From a candidate division WWE3 bacterium (GTDB lineage Bacteria; Patescibacteriota; WWE3; JAPLWK01), in contig JAPLWK010000008.1 in NCBI GenBank assembly GCA_026396615.1, positions 9,096 to 73,095 of the forward strand: 64,000 nt of DNA, written 5' to 3'. Both the position numbers and the translations under genes were made by a program. This document shows, one piece after another, positions 2,611 to 53,425 of the stretch (positions within the stretch are counted from its first letter, which is position 1; every line of letters begins with the position of its first letter). The notes beneath the pieces are model-generated. The model was given only the letters and a program-made list of their open reading frames with translations. It was not told where the DNA came from and did not search any database.

Positions 2611-2642
2611 GTCATTCCGGGCTTGACCCGGAATCCAGTAAC
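2611..2642. repeat. Solo copy of the hairpin repeat GTCATTCCGGGCTTGACCCGGAATCCAGTAAC
   Basis: Internal hairpin ATTCCGGG-CTTGA-CCCGGAAT; the same unit recurs at 14 or more loci in the window. Confidence 0.9.
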
Positions 2643-2707
2643 TTCGATCCAACCAATCATAAATCCCCTCTTGACGCTAAGGCCTCTTTTGTTAATCTAA
2701 GTTTTAC

Positions 2708-3727
2708 ATGAACATCGCCTTCGTTTACAACGTCCGCCACCTTAAGCCGGCCTTAAATGACCCCAAAGCTCAGGCCGAAGCCGAATACGATACCCCGGAA
2801 ACGATTGCCTGGATGAAAGAGTCACTAGAAAAATTAGGGCATACGGTGCACGAGGTAGAGGCTACAACTGCAACGTATGAGAAGCTTAGGGCCCTTAAAA
2901 AGTCCTACTCTGACCTACTAGTCTTTAATTATTCGGAGGGAATCGGAGGTAATGACCATGAAGCCCAAATCTCGGCAATTTGCGAAATTCTTGACCTCAC
3001 TTACACCGGCAGTAGCGTTTTAACCTCGGCGATTATCCTCAACAAAGCCCGCACCAAAGAGATTCTAAAAAATTACCACATTCCCACCCCGGAATGGATT
3101 ATTATTAACCCTATCTCCCTTATCACCCCTATCGCCCTTAGCTACCCACTTATCGTAAAACCGAATTCGGAAGGCAGCAGTAAAGGGATATTTAATAATA
3201 ACGTGGTAAATAATCTAGAAGAATTAACAAACGTAGTTACCAAGATCCGTGACGGTCTACAAGGCTCCGTACTTCTGGAAACCTATTTGCCCGGCCGCGA
3301 ATTCACCGTCGCTATGCTGCGTGATCAAGATGCCTGGCGAGTGCTCCCAATTATCGAAGTTAAGTTCGATGAGCTTCCCGATGGCATGTATCCCATTGAT
3401 TCCTATGAAGTTAAGTGGATCTACGACAGCCCCGAAAACAAAATCGAGCCCCTAGAGTGCCCAGCGAAAATTGACGATAAATTACGACAGAGAATCAAAG
3501 ATATCTGTATTCGGACTTGTGAGGCATTAGAGGTGCGCGATTACTGCCGCATTGACGTTCGTCTGGATGCTAACGACAATCCCTACGTACTAGAAGTTAA
3601 TTCACCACCGGGAATGGCTCCCAACCCCGCCGAGAACTCTCGCTTCCCGTATGCTGCTAGGAAAGCTGGAATGACGTATGAAGAGTTGCTGGACAAAATC
3701 ATTCAATCTGCCCTTAGGCGACGTTAA
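2708..3727 (+). CDS. ATP-grasp enzyme, D-alanine--D-alanine ligase-like
   Basis: C-terminal ATP-grasp signature (CRIDVRLDANDNPYVLEVNSPPGM); paralog of 42487..43635. Confidence 0.65.
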   Translation: MNIAFVYNVRHLKPALNDPKAQAEAEYDTPETIAWMKESLEKLGHTVHEVEATTATYEKLRALKKSYSDLLVFNYSEGIGGNDHEAQISAICEILDLTYTGSSVLTSAIILNKARTKEILKNYHIPTPEWIIINPISLITPIALSYPLIVKPNSEGSSKGIFNNNVVNNLEELTNVVTKIRDGLQGSVLLETYLPGREFTVAMLRDQDAWRVLPIIEVKFDELPDGMYPIDSYEVKWIYDSPENKIEPLECPAKIDDKLRQRIKDICIRTCEALEVRDYCRIDVRLDANDNPYVLEVNSPPGMAPNPAENSRFPYAARKAGMTYEELLDKIIQSALRRR

Positions 3728-3732
3728 TCGCC

Positions 3733-3830
3733 ATCGAGGACGGGGCATGCCCCGTCCCTACAGCCGTGTTTCAGGAGGCCTCCTTAAGATCATGTAGGGA
3801 CGACGCATGCGTCGTCCTCATTCGATTATT
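3733..3830. repeat. Structured repeat of about 95 bp with three GC-rich palindromic hairpins (copy A)
   Basis: GGACGGGGCATGCCCCGTCC, AGGAGGCCTCCT and GGGACGACGCATGCGTCGTCC, enclosed by CCCTACA...TGTAGGG. A second copy lies at 24749..24835 and shows a compensatory C-G to T-G change in hairpin 3. Confidence 0.8.
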
Positions 3831-4221
3831 TAAATACCCAAAGTTTGAAAAGAGGAAAATTGTTCCCCACCACCACGAACATAATCAAAAACTTCGCCAC
3901 CACAAAGTTAAGGTGAAAAACTTGGACCAGCAGAAAAAGCCCCAGTGACGTAATCAAATTGTTCTCAACGATAATACAAGCGTAGCGAAATAATTGCTTT
4001 TTCGTAAACGTCCGGTTCCTAAAAGTAAAATATTTTTGGACTAAAAAGGCGTAGGTAACGACGACGGGCGCTTGAACGATTGGCGTTAGACCGGCCGGTA
4101 CGTGTAGATAGTGATATAGCAAGTAGCCGGTGGTTAAATCTAAAACGTAGGCAGACAAGCCGCCAATAATGTACCGCACTAGCTGCCAGGGATGATGCCA
4201 GGTCTCGATGATGAAGCTCAT
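3826..4221 (-). CDS. GtrA-family membrane protein
   Basis: Four-transmembrane GtrA-like sequence starting MSFIIETWHHPWQLVRYIIGGLSAYVLDL. The ORF track extends it to 4320 by reading through the MITE terminal repeat (MIYWILNQVQND is encoded by the repeat). Confidence 0.6.
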   Translation of the reverse strand: MSFIIETWHHPWQLVRYIIGGLSAYVLDLTTGYLLYHYLHVPAGLTPIVQAPVVVTYAFLVQKYFTFRNRTFTKKQLFRYACIIVENNLITSLGLFLLVQVFHLNFVVAKFLIMFVVVGNNFPLFKLWVFK

Positions 4222-4284
4222 CAGCTTCCCCCAAACTTTTTTAGCAACAGAAATCACAGAAGTGAGTATACAATAAATTAATCC

Positions 4285-4570
4285 GTCATTCTGAACTTGA
4301 TTCAGAATCCAGTAAATCAAAACTAATTTTCAATTTGAAATTCGAAATATACGCTCGCTCGGCTCGCTACCAATTATCGTGACGATAATTGTTGAAAATG
4401 CTTAAAAATTGAATTCAACAATTTGCCACAAATTGGTAGTGAACAAAGTGAACGTTTATTTTAAATTGTAAATTTCAAAAAATTGGTAGTGAACAAAGTG
4501 AACGTTTATTTTAAATTGTAAATTTCAAATTATAGCAATTACTGGATTTCGGCTCTGAGGCCGGAATGAC
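4285..4570. mobile_element. MITE-like element bounded by inverted hairpin repeats, with an internal 50-bp tandem duplication
   Basis: Left repeat GTCATTCTGAACTTGATTCAGAATCCAGTAAATCAA (4285-4320), right repeat TTACTGGATTTCGGCTCTGAGGCCGGAATGAC (4539-4570). Internal AAATTGGTAGTGAACAAAGTGAACGTTTATTTTAAATTGTAAATTTCAAA x2 (about 4434-4533). Related cores at 20850-20905 and 36930-37020. Confidence 0.75.
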
Positions 4571-4587
4571 TTGTAGCCCATAACCAT

Positions 4588-4616: not shown

Positions 4617-4624
4617 GCCCCCAT

Positions 4625-6724: not shown

Positions 6725-6756
6725 GTCATTCCGGGCTTGACCCGGAATCTAGCAAC
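6725..6756. repeat. Solo hairpin repeat copy (GTCATTCCGGGCTTGACCCGGAATCTAGCAAC)
   Basis: Same family as 2611..2642. Confidence 0.85.
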
Positions 6757-19304: not shown

Positions 19305-19480
19305 GATAGAAACCTCCTAGGTTTTTCTGACTGAATTAACTAACAGGTTGCTAGTGCTCCTGTATCCCAATTTAACTCTTAATCGTTATTGATTTTAAGA
19401 ACTAAATCGGGATAAGGAGAAGACTATCGATTTTTGAAGTTTATTTGCCTATTTGCTCGAGACGGTGTCTCAATGGCAAA

Positions 19481-19516
19481 CACTATAACATAGTATCTAT
19501 ATTTTGTCAACTATTG
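19481..19516. promoter_or_regulatory. Direct repeat 1 of a pair of about 35 bp (cactataacatagtatctatattttgtcaactattg)
   Basis: Near-identical partner at 19743..19776. Both carry ATTTTGTCAACTAT; they lie in the 584-bp AT-rich region upstream of the kinase operon. Confidence 0.5.
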
Positions 19517-19742
19517 TTTCTCTCAATAAACTTTCCTCAATTTTCAAAGTACCACCAGTAAGCACTAAGGCACTCTGCCAAAGACTTAAAGTGTTACCAA
19601 CTAATTTCTGCTAACTACAAGTTAGAAGATATTAAACGGTAAAAACGTTATATTAATTATTTGAGAGTTTATTTAATCGTTAAGCTGGTAGGGGACTTAA
19701 GCTAAAAGAAGTTAACTCTCTCAGCTCCATTTCAACTGGAAG

Positions 19743-19776
19743 CACTATAGCATAAGTCATCTATTTTGTCAACTAT
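19743..19776. promoter_or_regulatory. Direct repeat 2 (cactatagcataagtcatctattttgtcaactat)
   Basis: See 19481..19516. Confidence 0.5.
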
Positions 19777-19888
19777 GAGATGCTGGGATTTTCGGTTAGT
19801 ATAGTGTCTGGGCATGCCTGCCCGCCTTTGGAGGGCCCCGCCCTAACTAAATAATCCATAAATTAATATTTCGTTATAGAATTAGAAA

Positions 19889-20128
19889 ATGAAAATGGAC
19901 AAGAAATCTAAAAAAGCTGATCAAATCGGCAATCTTTATCGCGCCGCGCTCTATTTAGCCAAAGATGACGTCGATCAAGCGATCCGATTCATATCTAGTA
20001 ATCCTTATCTCCCTAATCCCCCTTACCACCCCTATCAAATAGAGGAACTTAAAGCAGAACCTAAAACTAGACTTAAATTTGCCGAAAAGCTTCTCGATTT
20101 ATACAAACTCCAACTCCGATTACCCTAA
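19889..20128 (+). CDS. Small hypothetical protein (79 aa)
   Basis: ORF only. Confidence 0.3.
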   Translation: MKMDKKSKKADQIGNLYRAALYLAKDDVDQAIRFISSNPYLPNPPYHPYQIEELKAEPKTRLKFAEKLLDLYKLQLRLP

Positions 20129-20449
20129 ATAATGTACCAACCACGCCATAATCATCACATGACCCCCAAAATAAGTGACAACCATCATGCGGGAAATTAA
20201 TTCGACCACTCTCTCGGAAATAGGTCAAACTATGACAGCTACCTTTTGGATAATTTTATAAAAAATAGCAAAATTAATTAAGCGTAATTCCCTACCCATG
20301 TTTTCAATTTCCAACGAATTCCGGAGGGACTATGACACGGCCTATAGCATGTTTGGGATTTATTAGGAGCAGGTCGTTAATCCTGTGGTACAAATGCACA
20401 CGTCGCAAATCCACCAATTCCCGCAAAGCCAAGTTTTCCACATTTCCAC

Positions 20450-20529
20450 GTCATTCCGGGACAAGACCTGGAATCCAGTAAATCTGATTTATCAATTACT
20501 GGATTCCAGATCGCGGCGTCTGGAATGAC
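20450..20529. mobile_element. Minimal MITE: two inverted hairpin repeats flanking a 17-bp core
   Basis: GTCATTCCGGGACAAGACCTGGAATCCAGTAAATCTGATTTATCAATTACTGGATTCCAGATCGCGGCGTCTGGAATGAC. Confidence 0.75.
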
Positions 20530-20786: not shown

Positions 20787-20947
20787 GTCATTCCGGGACA
20801 AGACCTGGAATCCAGTAAATCTAAAAAGGCCAATTTCCAACAATTTGCCTAGAATTGGTAGCGAGCAAGGTGAACGTTCTTTCCAAATTGGATATTGGAA
20901 ATTTTACATCTTGTTTTACTAGATTCCGGCTACGGGGCCGGAATGAC
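20787..20947. mobile_element. MITE-like element (161 bp) with terminal hairpin repeats
   Basis: Left repeat GTCATTCCGGGACAAGACCTGGAATCCAGTAAATC, right repeat TTACTAGATTCCGGCTACGGGGCCGGAATGAC. The core contains AATTGGTAGCGAGCAAGGTGAACGTT, related to the 4285..4570 core. Confidence 0.7.
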
Positions 20948-22610: not shown

Positions 22611-22757
22611 GTCATTCCGGGACAAGACCTGGAATCCAGTAATAAATTCGATTTTAAATTTTGAAAATTAATCATTAATAATTGATTAAAAATTAAAAAT
22701 TAAAAATTTATTTAAATTAATTTGATTTACTGGATTCTGAATCAAGTTCAGAATGAC
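22611..22757. mobile_element. MITE-like element (147 bp) with terminal hairpin repeats and a very AT-rich core
   Basis: Left repeat GTCATTCCGGGACAAGACCTGGAATCCAGTAA, right repeat TTTACTGGATTCTGAATCAAGTTCAGAATGAC. The core resembles the AT-rich segment at 53330-53425. Confidence 0.8.
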
Positions 22758-25321: not shown

Positions 25322-25735
25322 CTATGCTTTTAATGATCTAACTTCTTGTAGTCCTTCGTTGGTTAAGTGCTTTTTGTTTTTAATTAATTCTGCGACTTGG
25401 CAGAACTTCTTAAACTCAAAACGCTTCTTTGCTTGTGGTGGGTAACTTTGAAAATATGGAATTATTTTCTCAGAAATATCCTTAAAATTACTTACTTTTA
25501 ACTTTACGTGCGGTCGCCATTTAGCGTAACGCTCATAATTTAAACGGTAAATATTTCCACAACCAAGAGATTGTTTTATTTCCTGTAAAATCGGTTCGTC
25601 ATCTTCCCGCAGTTCAATCTCAAATATGAGACGAACTTCCGGAAATCTGTCTTTATGATTATTAACAGAAATACTAAAACAACCTTCTCCATCAACGAAT
25701 CCAACTACATAGTTTGGATCTAACATAAGGTTCAT
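25322..25735 (-). CDS. LAGLIDADG homing endonuclease (single-motif type) encoded in 16S intron 1
   Basis: Motif VVGFVDGEGCFSISV near the N-terminus; 137 aa; located inside the insertion near E. coli position 1397. Confidence 0.8.
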   Translation of the reverse strand: MNLMLDPNYVVGFVDGEGCFSISVNNHKDRFPEVRLIFEIELREDDEPILQEIKQSLGCGNIYRLNYERYAKWRPHVKLKVSNFKDISEKIIPYFQSYPPQAKKRFEFKKFCQVAELIKNKKHLTNEGLQEVRSLKA

Positions 25736-26730
25736 CCCTTCATCTCCAGACTACCAAATAAAATACGAAGTAGCAAGAGATTACTATGGACTCAGCTGAC
25801 TTCTCGTAAAGCAATTGCTTCAATCTTTACGAGATCTCTCTGGGTCATTTAGAAAACTGTTCCAGGCATCCGAACGAGAGTCACTTCCTCATGACACACC
25901 ATGAGTCGATTTGACTATCCCTGTCAACGGGATTTCGGCTGCCTTTTGCCTCAGGCCCTCCAGACCAGCGCCTCGCGGCTCTGGACCTGCCATGTTATTT
26001 TCTTGACTACCACATTCAGTTTTCATGAACGTGGGATGGATTTTAACCATCTAGTTTTCTAAACTGCCAGACGCGCAATTAAATTTTTGTGTGCAAGACC
26101 CGAGAACGTATTCACCGCAGTATAGCTGACCTGCGATTACTAGCAACTCCAGCTTCATGAGGGCGAGTTGCAGCCCTCAATCCGAACTAAGGTCCACTTT
26201 TGTGGGATTTGCTCCACCTTACGATTTCGCTTCCCTTTGTAGTGGCCATTGTGGCATGTTTCTAGCCCCAGGCATAAGGGCAATACCGACTTGACGTCAT
26301 CCCCGCCTTCCTCCCTCTTGCGAGGGCAGTTCCACTAGAGTGATACAACTAGTAGTAGGGGTTGCGCTCGTTGACCCACTGAAGGGTACGTCTCACGATA
26401 CGAGCTGACGACAGCCATGCAACACCTGTGATAGCCTTCTTGCGAATTTCCCGCGTTTCTGCGGAATAGGACGCTATCATGTCAAACCTGGGTAAGGTTC
26501 TTCGGTTATCATCGAATTAAAGAACATGCTTCGCTGCTTGTGCGGGTCCCCGCCAATTCCTTTGAGTTTTAAGCTTGCGCTCGTACTTCCCAGGCGGTCG
26601 ACTTAACGCGTTAGCTTCGACGAACAATCCACCTTGCGGCGGGCCATCCATCCAGTCGACATAGTTTACGGCGTGGACTACACGGGTCATCGTGTATTTT
26701 AGCTCCTATTACTAGGAGGATCGGACTATA

Positions 26731-27474
26731 TCATTCACTGAAATGTTTGTGACGACTTTGCTTATCTTTAAGATAAAATCGCACCACTTCTTCCGAAAAA
26801 CCGGAAGACGTAATCACTTCAGAGATCCAGCGTTGCTGAAGAATTGAATCTTTGTATAGAAGCAATACTTTAGGCAACATTTGAGGAACTGGTACATAAG
26901 GAATTATGAGCCTTAAGAATTTTTTTAGTTCTTCTACAGAACTTAAATAAACTCTGCTATAGACCTTATTAACCAACGGGCGATGGACAAATCCAACGCT
27001 CGTGTTAATACCCCAAACGATTTTAAAATATCTTTTAATAATTTCGGCTTCTTTTAAGGAATAGCCATCTGTACAAAAAACCCCTTTGCGTTCCCCAATG
27101 ATAGAACCATCATCAAACCACCAGATTGCCAGAGCAAGTGGGGTTAATTTGTTCAACCATCTTCGGGAAACAAGCTTTTTTTGCCTTTTTGTAACCAAGT
27201 TATAATAACCGGTTAAAACTGGCAAAGCTAAGCTTTGATAACGCAACTTAGGATTCTTACTGTAACCATCAGCTGGTTGCTCCCAACAACAAGAGTCGCT
27301 TGATATTTCCTTAAGTTTAGACATTTTCCACCAAAAATATTCTTTCTGGTTTATTGAATGCCTAAAGGATAATCTCGCGTTTTTGTAATTAGGATTTACA
27401 GCTATTGAGGCATCTCCTAAAAGAGAACCTAAAACCACTGCTTCACATTCTTTTGACAAAGGTGTTAGCTTCAT
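26731..27474 (-). CDS. LAGLIDADG homing endonuclease (double-motif type) encoded in 16S intron 2
   Basis: Motifs VVLGSLLGDASIAV and LAIWWFDDGS; inside the insertion at the 785-806 region. Confidence 0.8.
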   Translation of the reverse strand: MKLTPLSKECEAVVLGSLLGDASIAVNPNYKNARLSFRHSINQKEYFWWKMSKLKEISSDSCCWEQPADGYSKNPKLRYQSLALPVLTGYYNLVTKRQKKLVSRRWLNKLTPLALAIWWFDDGSIIGERKGVFCTDGYSLKEAEIIKRYFKIVWGINTSVGFVHRPLVNKVYSRVYLSSVEELKKFLRLIIPYVPVPQMLPKVLLLYKDSILQQRWISEVITSSGFSEEVVRFYLKDKQSRHKHFSE

Positions 27475-28486: not shown

Positions 28487-28520
28487 GTCATTCCGGGCTT
28501 GACCCGGAATCCAGTAAACC
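28487..28520. repeat. Solo hairpin repeat copy within the 16S upstream/leader region
   Basis: GTCATTCCGGGCTTGACCCGGAATCCAGTAAACC. Confidence 0.85.
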
Positions 28521-33050: not shown

Positions 33051-34127
33051 ATGTACGAGCCTAAATATATTATCTCACCAAAGCTTTTAAACGTCATTGG
33101 CAAAATCGAAGCGGCTAAAGAAGTTATTGAAAACGCTCCGTTAGTGCCCCAGTGGGAACGCCAGTTCATGAATGATGCTGAGGCTCGGACCGTCCATTTT
33201 TCGACGCATATTGAGGGCAATGCCTTAGAGTTTAGTGAAGTTAAGAAAGTGTTAACCGGCCGCGGTGAAGAAGTGGTGGCCAGAGAGCGTGACCTCCAGG
33301 AGATTCTTAACTACCGCGAAGTAGTTAAATACATCGAAAAAATGTCAACACCTACCCAACCTATCGTACCTATAATACCTATGGTACCTACCAACCCAAC
33401 TATAACTGAAAGCACTATCCGCGAGCTACACCGTTTAATTACGAACCGCATTCTTTCTCCAGAGAAACAAGGAAAATATCGCACCCAGATTGCCAGTATT
33501 CGCAATTCAATTACCGGCGAAGTCAGCTTTGTGGCCCCGGAAGCACCACAGATAAATATTTTAATGACCGACCTTACCACTTGGCTGACGACCGAAGCCA
33601 AGGACGTCCATCCCGTACTAAAAGCCGGCATGGTGCACTACGAACTGGTGCGGATTCATCCGTTTGAAGATGGGAATGGCCGCACAGCTCGGGCTCTGGC
33701 GACCTTGTCACTTTATCTGGATGGCTATAATATCCGCCGGTTTTTTAGTTTAGATGAGCATTACGACCAAGACGCCGCCGCTTATTATTCAGCTTTACAA
33801 GCGGCCAACAAAGGGGAACTCACAACCTGGCTGGAATATTTTAGTGAAGGACTGGCGATAGAACTTAACCGCGTTAAAGAGCGCGTCTTAAAACTTAGTC
33901 ATGATAGTAAGCTGCGGAAGACGGTTGGCCAAATTGCTTTGTCGGAGCGCCAAGAACGGGTCATTGAGCAATTGCAAGACGTCGGCTACGTCCAAAATAA
34001 AGATTTTAAGAATATCTTCCCCGGCATCAGTGAGGACACGGTCTTAAGAGAGTTAAAAGACCTCGTTATTAAAGGCCTGATCTTTAAAAAAGGTAGTACC
34101 AAAGGGGCAAGATATGTACTTCGGTAG
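33051..34127 (+). CDS. Fic/Doc family protein (Fido domain plus C-terminal winged-helix)
   Basis: Fic motif HPFEDGNGRTARA. Confidence 0.85.
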   Translation: MYEPKYIISPKLLNVIGKIEAAKEVIENAPLVPQWERQFMNDAEARTVHFSTHIEGNALEFSEVKKVLTGRGEEVVARERDLQEILNYREVVKYIEKMSTPTQPIVPIIPMVPTNPTITESTIRELHRLITNRILSPEKQGKYRTQIASIRNSITGEVSFVAPEAPQINILMTDLTTWLTTEAKDVHPVLKAGMVHYELVRIHPFEDGNGRTARALATLSLYLDGYNIRRFFSLDEHYDQDAAAYYSALQAANKGELTTWLEYFSEGLAIELNRVKERVLKLSHDSKLRKTVGQIALSERQERVIEQLQDVGYVQNKDFKNIFPGISEDTVLRELKDLVIKGLIFKKGSTKGARYVLR

Positions 34128-34219: not shown

Positions 34220-36034
34220 ATGGCAAATGAATCCAATATGACTTTCTCTAAACTCACAGAATATTTTCAAAAACTGGAATCTACCCCAAAGCGCTTGGAG
34301 ATTACTTCGATCCTTGCGGAGCTCATCAACGAAGCAGATGCGACTGAAGTCGACAAGATTCTCTATTTGACCGAGGGACGGCTCGGACCTCTTTTTGACA
34401 ATGAGGACTTTAACCTCGGCGATAAAATGATCCAACGAGTCCTAAGTACTGCCTACAACAAAGCAACTGAAGAAATAACCAAGCAACTAAACACTGCCGG
34501 TGACCTTGGTGACGTCGCTGAAAAACTATCAAACTTATCGCCCTTACCTCCCGCATCTCCCTTAACCGTAATCGAGGTATTCGATCAACTAACTACTATT
34601 GCTTACGCAAGTGGCACTAACTCTCAGGATCGTAAAGTACAATCACTTGCTTCTCTACTAAGAATCAGTGCCCCGGTGGCAGCTAAATATTTAGTTAGGA
34701 TTCCCTTAGGAAAGTTGCGTTTAGGGTTTTCCGATCTTACTGTTCTTGATGCTCTCTCTTACACCATTACCGGGGACAAAGCCTTAAGAAACCAAATTGA
34801 AGCCACCTACAACATTTATCCGGATATCGGGCAAATAGCCAAAGTGCTAAAAGAATCCGGTACCGATGGCCTTAAAAAAATTAAACTCACCGCGGGAGTC
34901 CCTATTCTACCGGAGCGCTGCTCATTAGTTGAAAGTAGTGTGGAAATGCTAGAACGATCGGAGGTCTGGGCAGTGCAACCCAAGTATGACGGTTTAAGAA
35001 CGCAGATTCACTACGGCGTAAAATCGGCCAACCACGATTCCCTCATTACCTCAATTCCCCTTATCCCCCTTAACACCCAAACCTCCCATATAAAAACCAA
35101 AATCTACTCCCGAGGCCTGGAAGACATTACAGCAACGATGCCGGAAATAGTAGCAGCCGCGGAACAACTAGCTAACGAGTGTCACTTGAGTAGTTTTATT
35201 TTAGACGGTGAGGCCGTTACCGTAGATCCCACTACCGGTAAAATAATGCCATTTAACGATACCGTTACCCGCAAACGGAAGTATGATATTGCCGAAAAAT
35301 CGGCCAGCAATCCTTTGAACATTTTCGTTTTCGATTTACTCTTATTAAATGGAGAGGACTTAACCAACGAACCCTACACCGATCGATACGATCGTTTATC
35401 CAACCTATTACACCTACCCAACATATCAAACTTAACCAACCTGCACTTAACCCCCCAAACTGTTTTAAAAGACGCGGCGGCTATTTCGGCCCTATTCCAA
35501 AAAGACATTAAAGAAGGCTACGAGGGGATTGTGGCCAAAAAACCAAACAGTACCTACCACGCTGGTGCCCGTGATTATTCTTGGGTTAAACTAAAGCGGG
35601 AGGGCGACACCTCAGGCCTAGCCGACACTATCGATTGCGTAGTCATGGGTTACTACGCTGGTGAAGGGAAACGCAACGATTTTGGTATTGGCGCTTTTTT
35701 AGTTGGGGTTTACGATCCTAGCGATGACACCTTTAAGACACTGGCTAAAATCGGCACCGGACTTACTGACGATCGCTGGCGTGAGCTTAAAGCCAAGTGT
35801 GATCAAATAAAAACCACCAAAATGCCCACTCGTTACGTTACCCCCGCTTCCCTATCACCACACGTCTGGGTGACCCCCAGGCTCGTCGTCTCGATCCGAG
35901 CCGATCAAGTTACTAAATCCCCCAGTCACAGCAGCGGCTACTCCTTAAGATTTCCCAGACTTCTCGACTACCGCGAAAAGCTTCCGGAAGACGCCAACTC
36001 TGTAAGCGACATAGAAAAATTGTTTAAAAAATAA
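34220..36034 (+). CDS. ATP-dependent DNA ligase
   Basis: Adenylation motif I KYDGLR (AVQPKYDGLRTQ) and motif V-like EGIVAKK; 604 aa. Confidence 0.8.
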   Translation: MANESNMTFSKLTEYFQKLESTPKRLEITSILAELINEADATEVDKILYLTEGRLGPLFDNEDFNLGDKMIQRVLSTAYNKATEEITKQLNTAGDLGDVAEKLSNLSPLPPASPLTVIEVFDQLTTIAYASGTNSQDRKVQSLASLLRISAPVAAKYLVRIPLGKLRLGFSDLTVLDALSYTITGDKALRNQIEATYNIYPDIGQIAKVLKESGTDGLKKIKLTAGVPILPERCSLVESSVEMLERSEVWAVQPKYDGLRTQIHYGVKSANHDSLITSIPLIPLNTQTSHIKTKIYSRGLEDITATMPEIVAAAEQLANECHLSSFILDGEAVTVDPTTGKIMPFNDTVTRKRKYDIAEKSASNPLNIFVFDLLLLNGEDLTNEPYTDRYDRLSNLLHLPNISNLTNLHLTPQTVLKDAAAISALFQKDIKEGYEGIVAKKPNSTYHAGARDYSWVKLKREGDTSGLADTIDCVVMGYYAGEGKRNDFGIGAFLVGVYDPSDDTFKTLAKIGTGLTDDRWRELKAKCDQIKTTKMPTRYVTPASLSPHVWVTPRLVVSIRADQVTKSPSHSSGYSLRFPRLLDYREKLPEDANSVSDIEKLFKK

Positions 36035-36844: not shown

Positions 36845-36876
36845 GTCATTCCGGGCTTGACCCGGAATCCAGCAGC
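36845..36876. repeat. Solo hairpin repeat, followed by an AT-rich segment related to the MITE cores (to about 37020)
   Basis: GTCATTCCGGGCTTGACCCGGAATCCAGCAG, then CGCTACCAATTCTTATAGAATTGTTAAATTTTTAAGCATTTCAAATTGAATTCAAATTGTAAATTTCAAATTG, which matches 4340-4420. Confidence 0.8.
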
Positions 36877-37022
36877 TCTAATAATTTGAAATTTAAAATC
36901 AAAGTTTAAATTTGAAAAATCGACGCTCATTTTGTTCGCTACCAATTCTTATAGAATTGTTAAATTTTTAAGCATTTCAAATTGAATTCAAATTGTAAAT
37001 TTCAAATTGAAAATTAAGATTA

Positions 37023-37319
37023 ATGAAATCTATTAAAGAAGTTTTATCTGTTAGAGATCCAAAAAAAGGAAAGTACTCCAAGAACGAGTTTCAAGTGTTC
37101 GGCTACTATCTCGCTACGAACTTAGAAGACACCGCCCACACCTCACTCTATATTAAGCTCTCCAAAGACGTTGATCGCAACTTGTTGGAAAAGGCTTTAG
37201 CGTTTGTAAAAGACAGCAAAGCCCGCTCTAAAGGGAAATTATTCATGTGGAAACTGAAAGAACTGCGTCAACAAAATAAAACAAAGCAGACCAAGCCGGA
37301 AGAATTAAATCCAGTTTAA
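37023..37319 (+). CDS. Hypothetical basic protein (98 aa)
   Basis: ORF only. Confidence 0.35.
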   Translation: MKSIKEVLSVRDPKKGKYSKNEFQVFGYYLATNLEDTAHTSLYIKLSKDVDRNLLEKALAFVKDSKARSKGKLFMWKLKELRQQNKTKQTKPEELNPV

Positions 37320-37423
37320 TAGTTAGCTGACAAATAGGAGCACGTGCTAAGTTTTGTCAATATTAAAACCCGTCTGATTCCCCTTGCACTCTGCTTTGAA
37401 TATATCTAATATTAAAGTAGCAA

Positions 37424-37954
37424 ATGTTGACGTTTCTAAAGCACTACAAAATTAACCTCGCCATTGCTCTCGTCATGGCGGTTGCCATTATAATCATCCG
37501 CGGCGACTACGCGCTCATCACGATTATTTTGACACTGGTGGCCGCCAAATTGACCGTCTTTTTCTTTGACCTGGAGTTCATCTTCTATGCTTACTTCGCA
37601 GAACCAAATACCACCTTTAGCACGTCGCTAAGGACGCTGTTTAGTCAGAAAAACTATGTTGGTGCCATAAGTTTTATCGAGGCCCACGGATCTGATGCCA
37701 AAAATCCGATTCTTCGCAGTGCTCTCTTTCAAATACTTTTGATAGTCATTGCTGCTTATTTAGTCTTTTCCAAAGTAGGTCCTTTCGGTGTCACCTTTGC
37801 GGTGACCTTGCTAGCTCAAAGCATTTATTTGGGCTGGGAGAGGCGACATTTGGACTGGTTTTGGAACGTCAAGATGACCTTGACGAATAATGTTTATTAT
37901 TTTTATTTCGGTGTTATTTCTGTAATTTCGGTTTTCCTGTTGTTGTCGATTTAG
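37424..37954 (+). CDS. Hypothetical membrane protein
   Basis: Four or five transmembrane helices. Confidence 0.4.
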   Translation: MLTFLKHYKINLAIALVMAVAIIIIRGDYALITIILTLVAAKLTVFFFDLEFIFYAYFAEPNTTFSTSLRTLFSQKNYVGAISFIEAHGSDAKNPILRSALFQILLIVIAAYLVFSKVGPFGVTFAVTLLAQSIYLGWERRHLDWFWNVKMTLTNNVYYFYFGVISVISVFLLLSI

Positions 37955-37968
37955 ACAGTGTATTACTT

Positions 37969-38076
37969 GTCATTCCGGGCTTGACCCGGAATCCAGTCAA
38001 CCCGATTGTTATTTGCTTTTTGTTATTTGTTATTTTGATCGATGTTACTGGATTCCGGCTCCGGGGCCGGAATGAC
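37969..38076. mobile_element. MITE-like element (108 bp) with inverted hairpin repeats
   Basis: GTCATTCCGGGCTTGACCCGGAATCCAGTCAAC ... GTTACTGGATTCCGGCTCCGGGGCCGGAATGAC. Confidence 0.75.
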
Positions 38077-38085
38077 GAATTGTTT

Positions 38086-38844
38086 ATGAACAACTTACTC
38101 TACGGTTTCATCGTCGTCATCGGAATTTGGACTGCCACCACCGCGGTTAGTCTCATTAAAAGAAACACTAAGGTCGATATTTGGGGCGCGCTCGTCTGGG
38201 TTTTAATCGGTGGTTTAATAGGGGCGAGACTCTACCATGTCGCTAGTCTTTGGGGTTATTATTCTCAAAATCCCGGGGCGATAATTGCCATTTGGCAAGG
38301 CGGGTTGGGCATATACGGCGGCTTAATTGGAGGCGCCATTGCTCTCGTCACCTACTCTCGTCTGCATCATCTGCCTATACTACAACTACTTGACCTTGTC
38401 GCTTTAGGTTTACCGCTTGGACAGGCAATAGGCAGATGGGGCAACTACTTTCGCCAGGAACTTTACGGCCTGCCAACTCAATTACCTTGGGGCATCTACA
38501 TCGCCCCGGAAAATAGATTATGGCAAGTGATGCCTTTTAGCCACTTTCATCCGTTATTTCTCTACGAATCCCTCGGCTGCCTAGTAATATTTGGCATTCT
38601 AGTGGGTCTTGCCCTGAGCGAGGCCGCCCCAGGCGGACGAGTCGAAAGGGTTGACGGAGCCCTCTTTTTAATTTATATTGCCTTATACGGAATTTTAAGG
38701 TTCACTTTAGAACCTTTGCGGATTGAGAGTTGGACTTTAGGAAGTGTGAACGTCGCGGAGGCCATCTCGGCTTTGTTAACAATTACAGGCATCGTTTTAT
38801 TAGTAATTTTATGGAAGAAAAAACATCCGTCAAAACTTACTTAA
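38086..38844 (+). CDS. lgt: Prolipoprotein diacylglyceryl transferase
   Basis: Lgt signature GRWGNYFRQELYG and LYHV; start at MNNLLYG. The track ORF is extended through the MITE. Confidence 0.8.
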   Translation: MNNLLYGFIVVIGIWTATTAVSLIKRNTKVDIWGALVWVLIGGLIGARLYHVASLWGYYSQNPGAIIAIWQGGLGIYGGLIGGAIALVTYSRLHHLPILQLLDLVALGLPLGQAIGRWGNYFRQELYGLPTQLPWGIYIAPENRLWQVMPFSHFHPLFLYESLGCLVIFGILVGLALSEAAPGGRVERVDGALFLIYIALYGILRFTLEPLRIESWTLGSVNVAEAISALLTITGIVLLVILWKKKHPSKLT

Positions 38845-39592: not shown

Positions 39593-39651
39593 GTCATTCC
39601 GGGCCCCGAAGGGGAGCCTTTGGCTCTTGACCCGGAATCCAGAATATTACC
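39593..39651. repeat. Hairpin repeat copy with a 27-bp insertion (itself a hairpin, CCCCGAAGGGG) in its loop
   Basis: GTCATTCCGGG[CCCCGAAGGGGAGCCTTTGGCTC]TTGACCCGGAATCCAG. Confidence 0.8.
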
Positions 39652-40777: not shown

Positions 40778-40836
40778 GTCATTCCAGGCTTGACCCGGAA
40801 TCCAGTTACTGGATTCTGAATCAAGTTCAGAATGAC
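40778..40836. mobile_element. Minimal element made only of two abutting inverted hairpin repeats (REPIN-like)
   Basis: GTCATTCCAGGCTTGACCCGGAATCCAGTTACTGGATTCTGAATCAAGTTCAGAATGAC. Confidence 0.8.
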
Positions 40837-42486: not shown

Positions 42487-43635
42487 ATGACAGATTTAAC
42501 TCGCGCCCAAGAAAATTCCGATCAAGTTGAGCCCCCCAGTTTAAAGCCTAACCTGCGATTTGTTGGTATTACCTATTCCAAAGCCGACCGCAAATATTTT
42601 CACACCGAAGAAGAATTTATTTCCGAGGACGAAGTTTACGAACGAGCCACGGTGATCGCTAAATATTTAGAAAAACGCGGCATCGTGGTTAAACTTTACG
42701 CCGGCGATGAAACGATTGTCGCTGAATTACTCCGCGACCGGCCGAATCTGGTTATTAATTTAGTCGACACGATTCGCGGTGAGGAAACTTTAGAACCCTG
42801 CATTCCGGCCGCTTTGGAACTGGCCCAAATCCCTTATACCGGCAGCGGTATTTTGGGGCTTTCGATCGGTTCTAATAAATATTTAACTAAGAAACTGCTA
42901 GACATCGCTCACGTGCCTACTCCCAAATATCAATTTGTGGTTTCGCCAAATGACGTTATTGACCCTGAATTTAAGTACCCGCTGATTTCCAAGCTTAATC
43001 AGACCCACGGCTCTGTGGGAATGACCGCCGATGCCGTCTCCGCTAACGAAGCTGAACTGCGAAAGCGTTTACGAAGTTTAATTGGGACGTACAAACAACC
43101 GGTGTTAATTGAAGAATTTGTGGGGACGCGAGAAGTGTCCGTGATTTTACTGGACGGTTTGCGTAAGAAAGTTTACTGCGGCGAAAAAGTTTTTGACGCC
43201 GAATATCTTAAAGGATCCAAATACACTTTTTGCACTTTCGACGGCACTTGGCTTGACGAAAAATCCTGGACTTATAAAAAATACGACGACCCTAAATTAA
43301 ACGAAGCGGTGCGGGCCGCCTTTGATATTTTAAAAATGGACGATTACGCTAAATTCGATATTCGTTTAAATGACGACGGCAGTTTTTACTTTATTGACTG
43401 CAACCCCAACTCCACTTTTGGCCCCAAGGAGATGGGCATCGCCCTGGGCAGTATTTTGGATCTTTACGGCATTAATTTCGACGAGATTCTAGACAGACTT
43501 CTCGCTAACAGCGTTCAGGATATTTTAGAAGAAAAGAAAGAGGAAGCCGAGTTGTTCGCGAAGAATTTAGAAAAAGCGGAGTCCAAAGTGACTTCCCTAA
43601 TGGTTGTTCCCACTGATACGTCATTCCGGGCTTGA
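42487..43635 (+). CDS. ATP-grasp enzyme, D-alanine--D-alanine ligase-like (second paralog)
   Basis: ATP-grasp C-terminal motifs (FDIRLNDDGSFYFIDCNPNS). The stop TGA is supplied by the loop (CTTGA) of the hairpin repeat. Confidence 0.65.
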   Translation: MTDLTRAQENSDQVEPPSLKPNLRFVGITYSKADRKYFHTEEEFISEDEVYERATVIAKYLEKRGIVVKLYAGDETIVAELLRDRPNLVINLVDTIRGEETLEPCIPAALELAQIPYTGSGILGLSIGSNKYLTKKLLDIAHVPTPKYQFVVSPNDVIDPEFKYPLISKLNQTHGSVGMTADAVSANEAELRKRLRSLIGTYKQPVLIEEFVGTREVSVILLDGLRKKVYCGEKVFDAEYLKGSKYTFCTFDGTWLDEKSWTYKKYDDPKLNEAVRAAFDILKMDDYAKFDIRLNDDGSFYFIDCNPNSTFGPKEMGIALGSILDLYGINFDEILDRLLANSVQDILEEKKEEAELFAKNLEKAESKVTSLMVVPTDTSFRA

Positions 43636-43761
43636 CCCGCCTGCCCACCTTTAGCAGGGAATCCAGCCATCCCACTTGTCATTCCGGCCTTGAGCCGGAA
43701 TCCAGTAACAGATTAAACGATTGAATCGATTTACTGGATTCTGAATCAAGTTCAGAATGAC
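43620..43761. mobile_element. Composite MITE: two left-type hairpin repeats plus one right-type repeat
   Basis: GTCATTCCGGGCTTGACCCG[CCTGCCCACCTTTAGCAGGG]AATCCAG...GTCATTCCGGCCTTGAGCCGGAATCCAGTAA...TTTACTGGATTCTGAATCAAGTTCAGAATGAC. Confidence 0.8.
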
Positions 43762-46363: not shown

Positions 46364-46394
46364 GTCATTCCGGGCTTGACCCGGAATCCAGTAA
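46364..46394. repeat. Solo hairpin repeat copy
   Basis: GTCATTCCGGGCTTGACCCGGAATCCAGTAA. Confidence 0.85.
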
Positions 46395-47785: not shown

Positions 47786-48544
47786 TTAAAGTAACTTAAT
47801 TATTTTATTAACCAAATCCAATTCTACCTTCCGGTAATTTTCCGGCAGAAACTTGTCTAGATCCAAAAGAAGCGACTTTTCCGAAAAATTGGCCAGACGT
47901 TTTTGCAATTCTTCTTTAGAAATTGTTTCGTGGTAGTAGACTAACTTCCTTTCGACAAATTTCCAATCAATTGCTTCACCTCTTCCCAGTAAATACCACA
48001 AATCAAACAAATCCCGACCGCGACTACGATGCATAATAGCCCTAATTTTCTCAGCTACAATTTCCCTGGCACTCAAGTGTTTTATAATTGGAAGAGGTGA
48101 AACCGGCAAAGTTGTCGTGAGAACGCTGGTTTGCGGCTCTAAAGCGTTTTCCCGAGTTGAGAAATCTAATTTAAGAAAAAGTTGGGATGCCGAAAGTGGT
48201 AGATTAGAAAAAGTTAATCGAAAAGAAAAGTTTGGTTTTATAGTTTCTATTAATGCTAATTTTCCGGTGATATTTTCATCTACACAAAGCTTGCGAAGCG
48301 CCTCTGTAGCCAACTTCTGGATAACTTCTTGACTACCTCCGGTTGTAAAATCCAAATCTTCGGAGAATCTAAACGACCCAAAAACTAACTTGATGGCCGT
48401 CCCGCCTTTAAAAAAAGTGGTTTCACAATTCGGCTGCTCATAAAAATTCTTTAGGAAGACCACTTGAAGATACTCACGAAGTAGTGAATACTCGTCGATC
48501 TTTTTGGCCGCGGCCAATTGTTTTACTTCCAAGGCGGTAAGCAT
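47786..48544 (-). CDS. abiEii: AbiEii/DUF1814 nucleotidyltransferase toxin (type IV toxin-antitoxin / abortive infection)
   Basis: Family NTase motif FKGGTAIKLVFGSFRFSEDLDF. Confidence 0.75.
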   Translation of the reverse strand: MLTALEVKQLAAAKKIDEYSLLREYLQVVFLKNFYEQPNCETTFFKGGTAIKLVFGSFRFSEDLDFTTGGSQEVIQKLATEALRKLCVDENITGKLALIETIKPNFSFRLTFSNLPLSASQLFLKLDFSTRENALEPQTSVLTTTLPVSPLPIIKHLSAREIVAEKIRAIMHRSRGRDLFDLWYLLGRGEAIDWKFVERKLVYYHETISKEELQKRLANFSEKSLLLDLDKFLPENYRKVELDLVNKIIKLL

Positions 48545-49137
48545 AATTTCGGAAAGGCTTTGGCGTACTCACGGAGTTTAGCCAAATCAACGTGAGTTAG
48601 GTCAAGGTCTTTGTGATTAAGGTTGGTAAGGCCACGAGATTCAAAATACAGAGTATCCAAAAGAGCCTTCTCAGGCATGGCTATTAGAAACTCACCGGTT
48701 TTTTGGTAACCGAAGAAGAGTTTCTGTCCCAAATGAGAATATTTAATAATTTGGTTATCATAAGCAGTTTCGCGGCTTTTCTTGATAGTCGCCACTGTTA
48801 TAACTTGCGGATTTTGTGACAGTATTCCATAATAATTTAAAGCGGATTCGAAGGAAATGTAGCTGGGAGAAACTACAGCCGTTGCTACCGCGAATTTTTC
48901 AGGAGCTTTAAAACTGTTGGCGTAGAGGCCTTTGCGAATCGGCAGTAACCACCGATTCTTAACAAACCGATGTATTGCGGTGTTTTTAGAGTTAGCTGAC
49001 TTAAACCCTAAAGCGTTTTGCAAATCCTGACTCCCCAAAATGCTTTTAGTGGTACTTTGCAGAAATGAGATAAGTTGTTTGTTATAGATGGGTTCCATAT
49101 TATGTACAATAATGTACATTATCTGGGATCCTGTCAA
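48523..49137 (-). CDS. abiEi: AbiEi-family antitoxin/transcriptional regulator
   Basis: Lies upstream of AbiEii and overlaps it by 22 bp; size and winged-helix N-terminus fit AbiEi. Confidence 0.6.
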   Translation of the reverse strand: MTGSQIMYIIVHNMEPIYNKQLISFLQSTTKSILGSQDLQNALGFKSANSKNTAIHRFVKNRWLLPIRKGLYANSFKAPEKFAVATAVVSPSYISFESALNYYGILSQNPQVITVATIKKSRETAYDNQIIKYSHLGQKLFFGYQKTGEFLIAMPEKALLDTLYFESRGLTNLNHKDLDLTHVDLAKLREYAKAFPKLCLPPWK

Positions 49138-49224: not shown

Positions 49225-49299
49225 GGGTGAGTAGCTTAATGGTAGAGCAGACGTCTTATACACGTCCGGTTCCAGGTTCGAATCCCGGCTCACCCACCA
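49225..49299 (+). tRNA. Candidate tRNA-Ile (anticodon UAU), CCA encoded
   Basis: GGGTGAGTAGCTTAATGGTAGAGCAGACGTCTTATACACGTCCGGTTCCAGGTTCGAATCCCGGCTCACCCACCA; perfect 5-bp anticodon stem GACGT/ACGTC, loop CTTATAC, A51:C63 mismatch in the T-stem. Confidence 0.7.
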
Positions 49300-51319: not shown

Positions 51320-51443
51320 CAAACTCTTAGTCCTGTAGTATAATAATGAGTGATCAAGTCTCTTAACCACTGAAACGAGCGAACCCTAATATTCAACATC
51401 CTCTCAGCCCAACCTCATCAAAATGTTATATAATCACTAAGTT

Positions 51444-53282
51444 ATGCCAAATGGAAATCAAAATCCACAGTCAAACGTCAAAGCTCCCAAAAAGAAAAAC
51501 TTTTGGGACAATATTTTCTTTTATCTGTTAATAATTGCCATCGGTTGGGCGTTAATAAGTGCTTTCGGAAACAGTAGCAAAAGCGACGTCACTAAACCCT
51601 TTTCCAATGTTATTGGCCTTGCGCTCCAAGGGAAGGTTAGAGGCATCGAAGTGGCTGGCGACACAGTCACAGTGACCCTTAAGGACAGTTCCAAGTTTGA
51701 TGCCACTAAAGAAAGCAACGTTTCCGTTTTGGAAACCCTGCAGCGAAGCAACGTTGACCTAAATAATATTCCTGATGGCGTGACTACTAAAACAAACCTC
51801 CCCATCCTCGACCTTCTCCTAAATTTTGGCCCAATAATACTAATGGGCGCTCTACTCTTTTTCTTCTTCCGCCGAGCTCAGGGCGGGGCTTCCGACATTT
51901 TGTCGTTTGGTCGCAGCAAAGCTAAATTATTTATTAAAGATGCTAATAAAGAAGTTAAAGGCGTCACTTTTGGCGATGTGGCTGGCTCAACAGAAGCCAA
52001 ACGAGAACTTACCGAAGTAGTCGACTTTTTAAAATTCCCCGAAAAATATCGCAAACTGGGAGCCCGCATTCCTAAAGGGGTTCTATTAATTGGGCCACCC
52101 GGGGTTGGGAAGACAATGCTGGCCAAAGCTGTCGCCAACGAGGCCGGTGTCCCCTTCTTTAGCATGGCCGGCAGTGAATTTATGGAAATGCTCGTTGGCG
52201 TTGGCGCGAGTCGCGTTCGCGATTTGTTTGACACTGCCAAGAAGGCTCAGCCCAGTTTAATTTTCATTGACGAAGTGGAATCTATTGGTAAGCAGCGGGG
52301 TGGCGGGATGATGGGCGGTCATGATGAACGAGAGCAGACCCTTAATCAGATTTTGGTGGAAATGGATGGCTTTGACACCCGCACGAACGTGATCGTGATT
52401 GCGGCGACGAACCGACCGGATATGCTTGATAGTGCCCTGCTGAGACCCGGAAGGTTTGACCGAACAGTAACACTGGAGTTACCAGACTTAAAAGAGCGCG
52501 AGGAAATTATTAAAATTCACATGCGCGGTAAACCTTTTACAGGCAATGTTTCCGTGGAACACGTGGCCCAGCAAACCAGCGGTTTTAGCGGAGCAGATCT
52601 AGAAAATATGCTTAATGAAGCCGCCATTTTAGCCGCCCGCAATGATAAAAAAGAAATTGATGATCGTGATTTAACGGAAGCTTCCCTAAAAGTTAAATTA
52701 GGCCCCGAAAGGCGCCGCTTGCAAAGCGATGAGGATAAAAAAGTAATTGCTTACCATGAAGCCGGGCACGCTTTGGTGTCTTCCCAAATTCCGGGCTTGG
52801 ATCCGGTGACGAGAGTGTCGATTGTGGCCCGCGGCATGGCCCTGGGCTTTACTCAAAGTGCGCCTCTTTCTGATCGCCGTAACGAAAGCAAGACTCGACT
52901 CTTAGGAATGATTACCTCTGCTCTTGGTGGCAGAAGTGCCGAAGAATTAGTCTTTGGTGAAGTAACGACTGGAGCGTCTAACGATATTGAAGTGGCCACA
53001 GCGTTAGCGCGAAGAATGGTTACCGAGTTTGGAATGAGCGAACTCGGGCCTGTCTCTTTTGATAATTCAAATGAGAAGATGCTCTTCCCATTTGGTGATT
53101 CTGCGATGTCGGAAGAAACTAAAAGTAAAGTCGACAAAGCTGTTAAAAAAATCGTCGACGATGCCCACGAAAGAGCTTTAGAATTATTAACCACACATCG
53201 CGAAAAGCTCGACAAAATCGTGGCCGGTTTAGTAGAAAAAGAGACTTTGGAAGCAGAAGACTTTAAAGTGTTGATTGGATAA
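51444..53282 (+). CDS. ftsH: ATP-dependent zinc metalloprotease FtsH
   Basis: Walker [12 protein letters not shown] region, zinc site HEAGHA. Confidence 0.9.
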
Positions 53283-53291
53283 AGGAAACAT

Positions 53292-53425
53292 GTCATTCCG
53301 GGCTTGACCCGGAATCCAGTAACGGATTAAAATTTTTAATTTAAAATTTTTAATCAAACATTAATTTTTAATGAATTAATTCATTAATTATTGATTGAAA
53401 ATTAAAAATTGGTAATTAAAAAATT
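53292..53425. repeat. Half MITE: left hairpin repeat plus AT-rich core, no right repeat; it abuts the start codon of the exonuclease gene
   Basis: GTCATTCCGGGCTTGACCCGGAATCCAGTAAC followed by ATTAATTATTGATTGAAAATTAAAAATT, similar to the 22650-22730 core. Confidence 0.7.

Follow-up and report, generated by a model that had tools for sequence, protein, structure and literature searches.

The Ssn system and the hairpin repeats of a WWE3 genome

In Neisseria, around half of the copies of the repeat dRS3 belong to a longer, oriented repeat called NTS, CGTCATTCCCGCGMAVGCGGGAATCYRG (Chenal et al., Nat Commun 2025, PMC11893778), and NTS-like 'Ssn-related motifs' (SRMs) are present in many bacteria, Wolbachia included (PMC11893778). 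Where dRS3 repeats flank RS elements, the arrangements are known as Neisseria intergenic mosaic elements (NIMEs; Parkhill 2000; Bentley 2007, PMC1797815), which were stated in 2007 not to occur outside Neisseria (PMC1797815). Here we report on a dense family of hairpin repeats in a metagenome-assembled genome of candidate division WWE3, which belongs to the candidate phyla radiation (CPR). The window, i.e. the whole stretch of DNA that was analyzed, comprises 64,000 nucleotides of contig JAPLWK010000008.1, which is 213,525 bp long. The comparisons given below indicate that the repeats in this window are probably Ssn-related motifs of the NTS/dRS3 family, arranged as NIME-like units. As this explanation invokes a recently published system, the repeats would not constitute a new mobile-element family.

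The NTS sequence reads CGTCATTCC-CGCGMAVGCG-GGAATCYRG, and 2% of the NTS are located inside genes (PMC11893778). SRMs cluster near ssnA, a single-domain GIY-YIG gene of 94 amino acids: one SRM or more lies near 71% of the SsnA homologues, for 42% there are SRMs on both sides, and 81% of the genomes with more than 200 SRMs carry an Ssn gene (PMC11893778). The nuclease binds the motif, and cleaves it upstream of the hairpin, as single-stranded DNA only and on the forward strand only; cleavage depends most on the three bases 5' of the palindrome, and binding on the C that directly follows on its 3' side (PMC11893778). In N. meningitidis the system reduces the integration of NTS-carrying transforming DNA, and the SRMs of Wolbachia are cleaved by the Wolbachia SsnA (PMC11893778). 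The layout of the SRM-ssn-SRM cassette was likened to an insertion sequence by the same authors (PMC11893778).

An oriented DNA hairpin in 22 copies

The copies in the window were counted with the exact pattern GTCATTC-N10-40-GAATCCAG, after which one mismatch per flank was allowed, and 100 dinucleotide-preserving shuffles of the window provided the chance baseline. In this way, 19 exact matches were obtained, against 0.00 across the shuffles, and the relaxed search added three degenerate copies, at 4542-4570(-), 6725-6752(+) and 20919-20947(-). Together these make 22 copies, of which the + strand carries 15 and the - strand 7, and they occupy 14 loci. This bears out the preliminary description of this DNA, which had counted at least 14 loci and about 20 copies; its coordinates for the solo copies (2611, 6725, 28487, 36845, 39593, 46364 and 53292) and for the inverted pairs are all correct, and the locus at 43620-43761 holds an additional + strand copy at 43678.

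The repeat is an oriented 31-bp DNA hairpin, GTC-ATTCCNNN-loop-NNNGGAAT-CCAGTAA. Each copy consists of a 5' GTC, an 8-bp stem, a loop and a 3' CCAG that is mostly followed by TAA; the stem of the major variant, A, is ATTCCGGG/CCCGGAAT, and the loop varies between 5 and 8 nt, CTTGA being the commonest. The 8-bp stem had been recognized before, but the 'ATTC' and 'GAAT' then taken as flanks are both part of the stem, and the loop is not restricted to 5 nt. When 20 copies are aligned, the invariant parts are GTC, the outer five stem pairs (ATTCC/GGAAT), the first C of the tail and the AG of CCAG, and G4, T5, C6 and the C directly after the stem are unchanged in 20 of the 20. Pairing was found in 98.8% of the stem cells of this alignment, and the inner stem covaries, with four of the eight pairs altered on both sides (18 cells). 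None of 500 shuffles matched the covariation score and the slid controls collapsed, so that the earlier suggestion of selection at the level of structure is supported by compensatory changes. As single-stranded DNA, the single hairpins have a predicted folding energy of -4.6 to -8.5 kcal/mol, and the doublets are predicted to fold into long hairpins of -16 to -27 kcal/mol.

An independent assembly of run SRR20698644 is identical to window positions 36979-37993, with 0 mismatches, and terminates inside the copy at 37969. Given this agreement, the repeat is not an artefact of one assembly.

Correspondence to NTS and distribution over phyla

When the window copies are written as GTCATTCC-N11-14-GGAATC[C/T]AG, all 17 flank and stem-base positions equal those of NTS (GTCATTCC / GGAATCYRG). 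Moreover, the positions that are invariant in the window, GTC and the 3' C, are exactly those that are decisive for SsnA (PMC11893778). Both repeats are oriented hairpins of around 28 nt that share the conserved bases GTCATTCC...GGAATC(C/T)(A/G)G, and both are intergenic, high in copy number and found in inward-facing pairs. They differ in the inner stem and loop, which read GGGCTTGACCC in the window, one base longer than CGCGMAVGCG: in the window a 5-nt CTTGA loop goes with GGG/CCC (or GAA/TTC, GGC/GCC), in Neisseria a 4-nt loop goes with CGC/GCG. They differ in host as well, since CPR bacteria are unmentioned in PMC11893778. Among the comparison loci that were fetched from other genomes (labelled with L-numbers), the Neisseria locus L018 contains GTCATTCC-cgcgcaggcg-GGAATC(C/T)AG, a low-GC core and then CTGGATTCC-cactttcgtg-GGAATGAC, with hairpins of left and right type facing inward, in the dRS3/RS arrangement of the NIMEs. 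In view of these termini, which are those of the Neisseria NTS/dRS3 repeats and thus of a motif family described in 2025, the novelty that the preliminary description had proposed for the family is not supported.

Neither is it specific to one lineage or confined to the window. The exact 28-mer of variant A was sought in a collection with one genome per species, in which all counts are lower bounds (at least 120 stretches), and the source genome itself is not among the stretches listed. It was present in over 120 stretches, which come from around 20 phyla; six CPR lineages are represented, and there are multi-Mb chromosomes among the stretches. The record titles include Pseudomonadota, Thermodesulfobacteriota, Nitrospirota and Chloroflexota, with chromosomes of 4-5 Mb among them, and furthermore Binatia, Armatimonadota, Planctomycetota, Verrucomicrobiota, Zixibacteria, Caldisericia, Entotheonella and others, as well as one 2.4-kb contig labelled Woesearchaeota (DPANN). 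The sequences that flank the 28-mer are unrelated between genomes, and at orthologous sites of two Propionivibrio species the 28-mer is intact and the flanks differ at many positions. Among the listed stretches, around half of the variant A copies are accompanied by a partner that faces inward, 6-130 nt downstream (61 inward versus 4 outward). A generalized pattern, GTCATTCC-N10-14-GGAATCCAG, matched in more than 120 viral or prophage contigs; 157 of the 173 matches have three or more complementary inner stem pairs, and CGCGCAGGCG is the most frequent core. The CTTGA loop is retained across phyla in combination with ten or more different stems of perfect complementarity, on account of which we consider it to mark a distinct class of the motif. 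One locus of an Armatimonadota chromosome (L135, 5493-5708) carries five tandem exact variant A hairpins with a 47-bp period, of which the last is followed by a variant B-like inverted copy; a CRISPR-like array was considered for this locus and rejected, as the 19-nt 'spacers' are near-identical and the structure is an ordinary tandem repeat.

The link to the Ssn nuclease follows from the genes that such hairpins enclose in other genomes. In three of the loci (L170, L190 and L229), exact variant A and an inverted partner bracket a gene of around 95 amino acids at a distance of around 3-30 nt, and in four others (L116, L049, L224 and L001) different variants bracket SsnA homologues. The L190 protein aligns to a 94-residue open reading frame (ORF) of N. 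gonorrhoeae with 57% identity over 98% of its length (E 2e-29), and this ORF is the SsnA orthologue and sits in NTS arrays. Considering that variant A brackets SsnA homologues elsewhere, it is an Ssn-associated motif by operational definition. An all-against-all clustering of the ORFs from 120 repeat-bearing loci of other genomes yielded only one recurrent repeat-adjacent family beyond generic domains (histidine kinases, ABC ATPases etc.), namely the small GIY-YIG/Ssn proteins, and the search for a linked transposase was thereby decided in the negative for these loci.

The same data bear on the possibility that the repeats are repetitive extragenic palindromes (REPs) or REP doublets (REPINs), spread by a single-copy REP-associated tyrosine transposase (RAYT; TnpA-REP, a Y1 HUH enzyme) encoded outside the window. 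The resemblance is real: the window repeats are GC-rich extragenic hairpins close to stop codons and occur singly or as inverted doublets of two types, similar to the layout of Y and Z REPs in bacterial interspersed mosaic elements, and the REPIN-like doublets of the preliminary description, including the 59-bp element at 40778, were indeed recovered. Like Ssn, the RAYT enzyme recognizes a single-stranded hairpin together with a short 5' guide and its gene is flanked by its own repeats. However, the GTAG/GTGG head by which REPs are defined, located 0-2 nt 5' of the stem, is absent, all copies having (T)GTC-A instead, and no Y1_Tnp match was found in the around 60 ORFs of the window. REP families are lineage-specific, whereas the identical 28-mer occurs in around 20 phyla, and the gene found between such hairpins elsewhere encodes a GIY-YIG protein and not a Y1 HUH transposase. 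A REP/RAYT origin is therefore very unlikely.

Arrangement as NIME-like units

Inward-facing pairs are formed at seven loci, and each - strand copy is the right arm of such a pair (Table 1). The eight unpaired copies are all on the + strand (two-sided binomial ~0.008). The arms differ systematically in stem type: left arms are of type A or C (B once, D' once) and right arms of type B, D or E. The GC skew of the window is negative up to ~46 kb and positive beyond, an observation that may be set beside the strand bias.

The spacers or cores of the seven pairs measure 3-223 bp, and the measured cores have a GC content of 7-35%, versus ~44% for the window. Certain core modules are common to 4316-4538, 20819-20915 and 36876-37022, the core at 22643-22726 resembles 53323-53425, and the module AATTGGTAGYGARC was found five times among the cores. 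Two of the 'solo' copies, 36845 and 53292, have core-like sequence on their 3' side and no right arm. In addition, the spacer that separates tRNA-Ala from the 23S gene (609-772) contains AT-rich modules (ATTTCAAATTG runs) like those in the cores 4316-4538 and 36876-37022, and no hairpin arm. This organization corresponds to that of the NIMEs: inverted left and right hairpin types surround short cores of lower GC content, the cores fall into sequence families common to several loci, as do the RS elements (PMC1797815), and in both cases there are small arrays and a peak-and-trough GC pattern. They differ in that the window copies do not follow the strict dRS3 sequence ATTCCC-N8-GGGAAT but have ATTCC-N11-14-GGAAT, and in that the arrays of the window are much shorter, with at most three hairpins.

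The preliminary description had proposed a candidate new MITE (miniature inverted-repeat transposable element). According to that proposal, the hairpins would be the terminal inverted repeats of non-autonomous transposons, which a DDE (or similar) transposase from another part of the genome mobilises in trans. Like MITEs, the window units are short, non-coding and AT-rich inside, they have inverted terminal copies around variable AT-rich cores (59-286 bp), many copies lie at unrelated intergenic sites, and the independent assembly breaks at the repeats, as it would at dispersed repeats. Nevertheless, the length of abutting direct repeats is 0 for all seven pairs, whose flanks have no 4-mer in common within 12 nt, so that a target-site duplication is lacking in each of them. 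The ends are not TG...CA, and a transposase domain was not detected in the ~60 ORFs of the window, which were scanned with Pfam. Furthermore, eight copies stand alone and are oriented, paired arms have stems that differ from each other, and the only coding unit found with these termini in other phyla is the GIY-YIG nuclease, not a transposase. No DDE-type transposition signature is present in the window repeats. Given the lack of target-site duplications, the lack of a transposase in the window and the many solitary oriented ends, we regard a classical MITE as highly improbable. The analogy retains some structural merit, as the same pair of hairpins elsewhere encloses the ~300-bp ssn gene, and for that reason the window units look as if derived from an SRM-ssn-SRM cassette, without its gene. 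For the repeat-flanked thioredoxin reductase, the nearest homologue has 57% identity and is too distant for a comparison of intergenic presence and absence. A multi-copy gene of 339 amino acids beside the repeats was considered and dismissed, since the three ORFs concerned, which encode TrpRS, a PIN-domain protein and an ATP-grasp enzyme, are not related to each other.

Two copies carry internal insertions of 19-22 nt. Both had been described as nested in the loop, which holds for the 22 nt in the 39593 copy, but the 19 nt in the 43620 copy are located in the 3' arm of the stem. Such insertions might be read as a sign that the hairpins are kept as landing pads, i.e. as integration targets of filamentous phages or of IS110/Piv-type recombinases. 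The Neisseria Nf phages integrate at dRS3 by means of a phage transposase (PMC1797815), and IS110-family elements target REP-like hairpins. Considering that the window contains no IS110/Piv gene, prophage or element-interrupted copy, and that being a target explains neither the origin of the hairpins nor the invariant GTC and C, we find this reading extremely improbable.

Table 1. Repeat loci of the window and the GIY-YIG gene near its end. Positions are those of the window; left and right refer to the arms of inward-facing pairs.
Feature	Position	Strand	Details
Unpaired SRM-type hairpin, variant A (GTCATTCCGGGCTTGACCCGGAATCCAGTAA)	2611..2641	+	Divergent intergenic region, sortase / ATP-grasp gene
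NIME-like unit	4285..4570	.	Left arm 4285-4315(+), variant B (CTGAA/TTCAG); right arm 4539-4570(-), variant D; core 223 bp, 27% GC, with 50-bp tandem duplication and three AATTGGTAGYGARC modules
Unpaired hairpin, variant A, GAATCTAG tail	6725..6755	+	C-Y-R-G tail alternative also in Neisseria NTS
Short doublet	20450..20529	.	Left variant C (CCGGGACAAGACCTGG, one G-T pair); 14-bp spacer; right variant E (CCAGACGCCGCGATCTGG)
NIME-like unit	20787..20947	.	Left variant C; 97-bp core, 35% GC; right variant D (CTAG tail), beginning 7 nt past stop codon of PIN-domain gene
NIME-like unit	22611..22757	.	Left variant C; core 84 bp, 7% GC; right variant B, overlapping last ~13 codons of RadA ORF
Unpaired hairpin, variant A	28487..28517	+	Divergent region, 99 nt upstream of 5' end of 16S rRNA gene
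Half unit	36845..37022	+	Variant A hairpin 36845-36875, 5 nt past a stop codon; 20% GC core-like stretch, no right arm
NIME-like unit	37969..38076	.	Left variant A; 45-bp T-rich core; right variant D; one long hairpin, -27 kcal/mol (predicted)
Unpaired hairpin, variant A	39593..39645	+	22-nt loop insertion (two mini-hairpins); 8 nt past stop codon of DsbA-like gene
Minimal 59-bp doublet	40778..40836	.	Variant A' (one stem mismatch) and variant B, 3-nt joint; 6 nt past TrxR-ferredoxin stop codon
Small array of three copies	43620..43761	.	Fills convergent intergenic region
Array copy, variant A	43620..43669	+	19-nt insertion in 3' stem arm
Array copy, variant D'	43678..43708	+	
Array copy, variant B	43731..43761	-	Begins 6 nt past TrpRS stop codon
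Unpaired hairpin, variant A	46364..46394	+	33 nt upstream of perfect TTGACA-17-TATAAT promoter-like site
Unpaired hairpin with core-like stretch	53292..53425	+	Variant A hairpin 53292-53322, 9 nt past FtsH stop codon; 11% GC core-like stretch, no right arm
Single-domain GIY-YIG nuclease gene, 98 aa (NCBI MCX6783807.1)	63657..63953	+	PF01541 at residues 1-72, E 3e-16, no other domain

Position relative to genes and possible roles at the RNA level

Every copy either lies between genes or reaches no further into a gene than its last codons. Of the 22, nine begin within 14 nt of the stop codon of a co-oriented gene, or overlap it, and others are found in divergent promoter regions. The former might suggest that the repeats act as RNA, for instance as stabilisers in 3' untranslated regions, as terminators or as precursors of small RNAs, and that they were selected for RNA structure. 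Such a function would agree with the pair in variant C that is compatible with G-U, with the T-rich run that often follows variant A on the 3' side in other phyla, and with a full-length match of window positions 37948-38095 to Rfam family WsnRNA46, which is sub-threshold (34 bits, the gathering threshold being 65.3); at gathering thresholds Rfam gave no family for the repeats. WsnRNA46 (RF02625), from Wolbachia, is a long imperfect palindrome with termini GUCAU...AUCCAG / CUGGAU...AUGAC, as in the window unit. The two differ in that their inner sequences are unrelated and in that WsnRNA46 was defined as a transcript, the window unit from DNA sequence. On the other hand, the copies at 2611, 4285, 6725 and 28487 lie in divergent promoter regions, where there is no transcript end, CCAG intervenes between the stem and any T-run, and the tails in the window are A-rich, for which reasons the terminator reading was rejected. 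A rule of orientation relative to the flanking ORFs was not seen in other genomes, among 68 unpaired copies, and the invariant unpaired GTC and C fit the determinants of a nuclease that acts on DNA only. We therefore think it unlikely that RNA-level selection accounts for the repeats; a role of this kind is compatible with their identification as Ssn-related motifs and the two may coexist.

Donation of a promoter by the loop sequence TTGACC was also considered and rejected, given that a -10 box at the right distance follows one copy only, that at 36857. In two places the repeat appears to have contributed to the C-terminus of a protein: the last ~13 codons of RadA derive from a variant B copy (22717-22757, -), and a Ddl-like ORF stops at the loop TGA of the 43620 copy (43620-43635, +). 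Such repeat-derived C-termini recall the palindromic elements of Rickettsia and Wolbachia.

The search for a partner nuclease

The window contains one gene for a single-domain GIY-YIG protein (Table 1), which lies outside the span covered by the preliminary description and had been missed there; the statement in that description that a transposase or RAYT gene is not present in the window holds for the around 60 ORFs in the Pfam scans. The gene is a candidate for the partner nuclease, and the window, which ends 47 nt past its stop codon, offers no other. In a MAFFT alignment the protein has 26% identity to SsnA, and it falls into a subfamily of its own. A tblastn search with the protein against a set named 'plasmids', in which two N. 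gonorrhoeae chromosomes are included, gave no match at E 1e-3.

Several observations weigh against the identification of the repeats as Ssn-related motifs, most of them related to this gene. A search with an Ssn profile revealed no SsnA-type gene within the 64 kb. The sole ORF matched by this profile, at 63626-63949, was that of the GIY-YIG gene, with 35.8 bits, and the generic Pfam GIY-YIG model scored higher, at 59.9 bits. BLASTP gave no alignment of the 98-residue protein to the SsnA of N. gonorrhoeae (the criterion in the paper being E < 1e-10). There is no repeat upstream of the gene, and downstream 47 nt are visible. Among the metagenomic relatives of the protein, SRM-like hairpins within 3 kb were found for 2 of 80 (284 kb), versus 71% for the SsnA homologues. 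As regards the repeat itself, the published degenerate SRM string, HGTCWYN(0-2)YYVSBRHN(0-5)WNVSBRGN(0-2)RNCYNB, had 0 matches in the window, against a control mean of 0.19. This string encodes CGC/GCG-type inner stems, and the CTTGA-loop class of the motif escapes it. The three copies of variant C retain one G-T pair, which is better tolerated in RNA than in DNA. Finally, given that a canonical ssn gene is lacking in the 64 kb, we infer nuclease binding and cutting in this organism, as well as any role in uptake or recombination in CPR bacteria, solely from the work on Neisseria and Wolbachia.

On the basis of the missing BLASTP alignment, the separate subfamily, the absence of an upstream repeat and the 2 of 80 relatives with hairpins, the GIY-YIG gene was not assigned as partner of the repeats. 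Also against the assignment, one of its relatives (L245, 2400-2720), which has a 16-nt direct repeat (cattccccggtagctc) on both sides and continues into a tRNA gene, looks like a free-standing GIY-YIG gene inserted in the manner of a homing element. The organism of the window is also represented by two independent Logan assemblies (L241-L244, window 58995-63910), both of which stop inside the GIY-YIG gene, at ~63.8-63.9 kb, and not at a visible repeat.

Proposed function and implications

If the repeats are Ssn-related motifs, each copy would represent an oriented DNA hairpin site of which the GTC ... CCAG strand can be read by an Ssn nuclease. By analogy to the Neisseria system, an SsnA-type nuclease would bind this strand when single-stranded and cut it a few nt 5' of the hairpin. 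Single-stranded DNA that carries such sites, whether taken up or exposed during replication or repair, might in this way be cleaved at the borders of the intergenic regions that the repeats mark, which could limit or shape recombination, and an inward-facing pair would offer one cuttable site per strand. The doublets that surround AT-rich cores and lack a gene may be non-autonomous derivatives of the SRM-ssn-SRM cassette of other phyla.

A further, rather doubtful, possibility is that the CTTGA-loop SRM and ssn together constitute a promiscuous selfish cassette that crosses distant lineages, or that the doublets are served by the non-canonical GIY-YIG protein encoded at 63657-63953 or persist without a nuclease. 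In case of a selfish cassette, this CPR genome would have amplified the gene-less doublets. In any of these cases the Ssn/SRM system would be extended beyond its published definition.

By the identification as Ssn-related motifs, a dense repeat of a reduced CPR genome is placed in a system of which the biochemistry was worked out in 2025. CPR bacteria are thought to depend on the uptake of DNA. In case a nuclease is present, the repeats would bear on how these organisms handle incoming single-stranded DNA. The points that are modestly new are the CPR/WWE3 host, the NIME-like layout outside Neisseria, the CTTGA-loop class, the occurrence of one 28-mer across around 20 phyla and the fact that no canonical nuclease is evident in 64 kb. 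These refine a known system and do not reveal a new one.

Other features of the window

The rRNA genes of the window are unlinked, since the 5' end of the 23S gene (1-608, -) lies ~25 kb from the 16S gene (26035-28387, -). The latter measures 2353 nt, against 1533 nt for the model, and its insertion contains a LAGLIDADG_2 ORF (26731-27474) and a sub-threshold match to a group I intron (26702-26960). Just downstream of the 16S gene, at 25322-25822 (-), a group II intron D1-D4 match above the gathering score (25735-25822) abuts a LAGLIDADG_1 ORF (25322-25735). The tRNA genes include two for tRNA-Ala(TGC), on opposite strands (773-849 and 1621-1692), and one for tRNA-Ile with anticodon TAT (49225-49299, +; ARAGORN), where Rfam also reports a tRNA. 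A region of 1.1 kb (19305-20449) that adjoins two repeat units is devoid of ORFs of at least 80 amino acids and of Rfam matches, and contains an ORF of 79 amino acids (19889-20128). Furthermore, the window encodes two Fic/DOC proteins and an AbiEii toxin, the gene of which has an upstream partner ORF of 204 amino acids (33051-34127, 47786-49137 and 58801-59940), an ATP-dependent DNA ligase (34220-36034) and a GGDEF protein (60290-61015).

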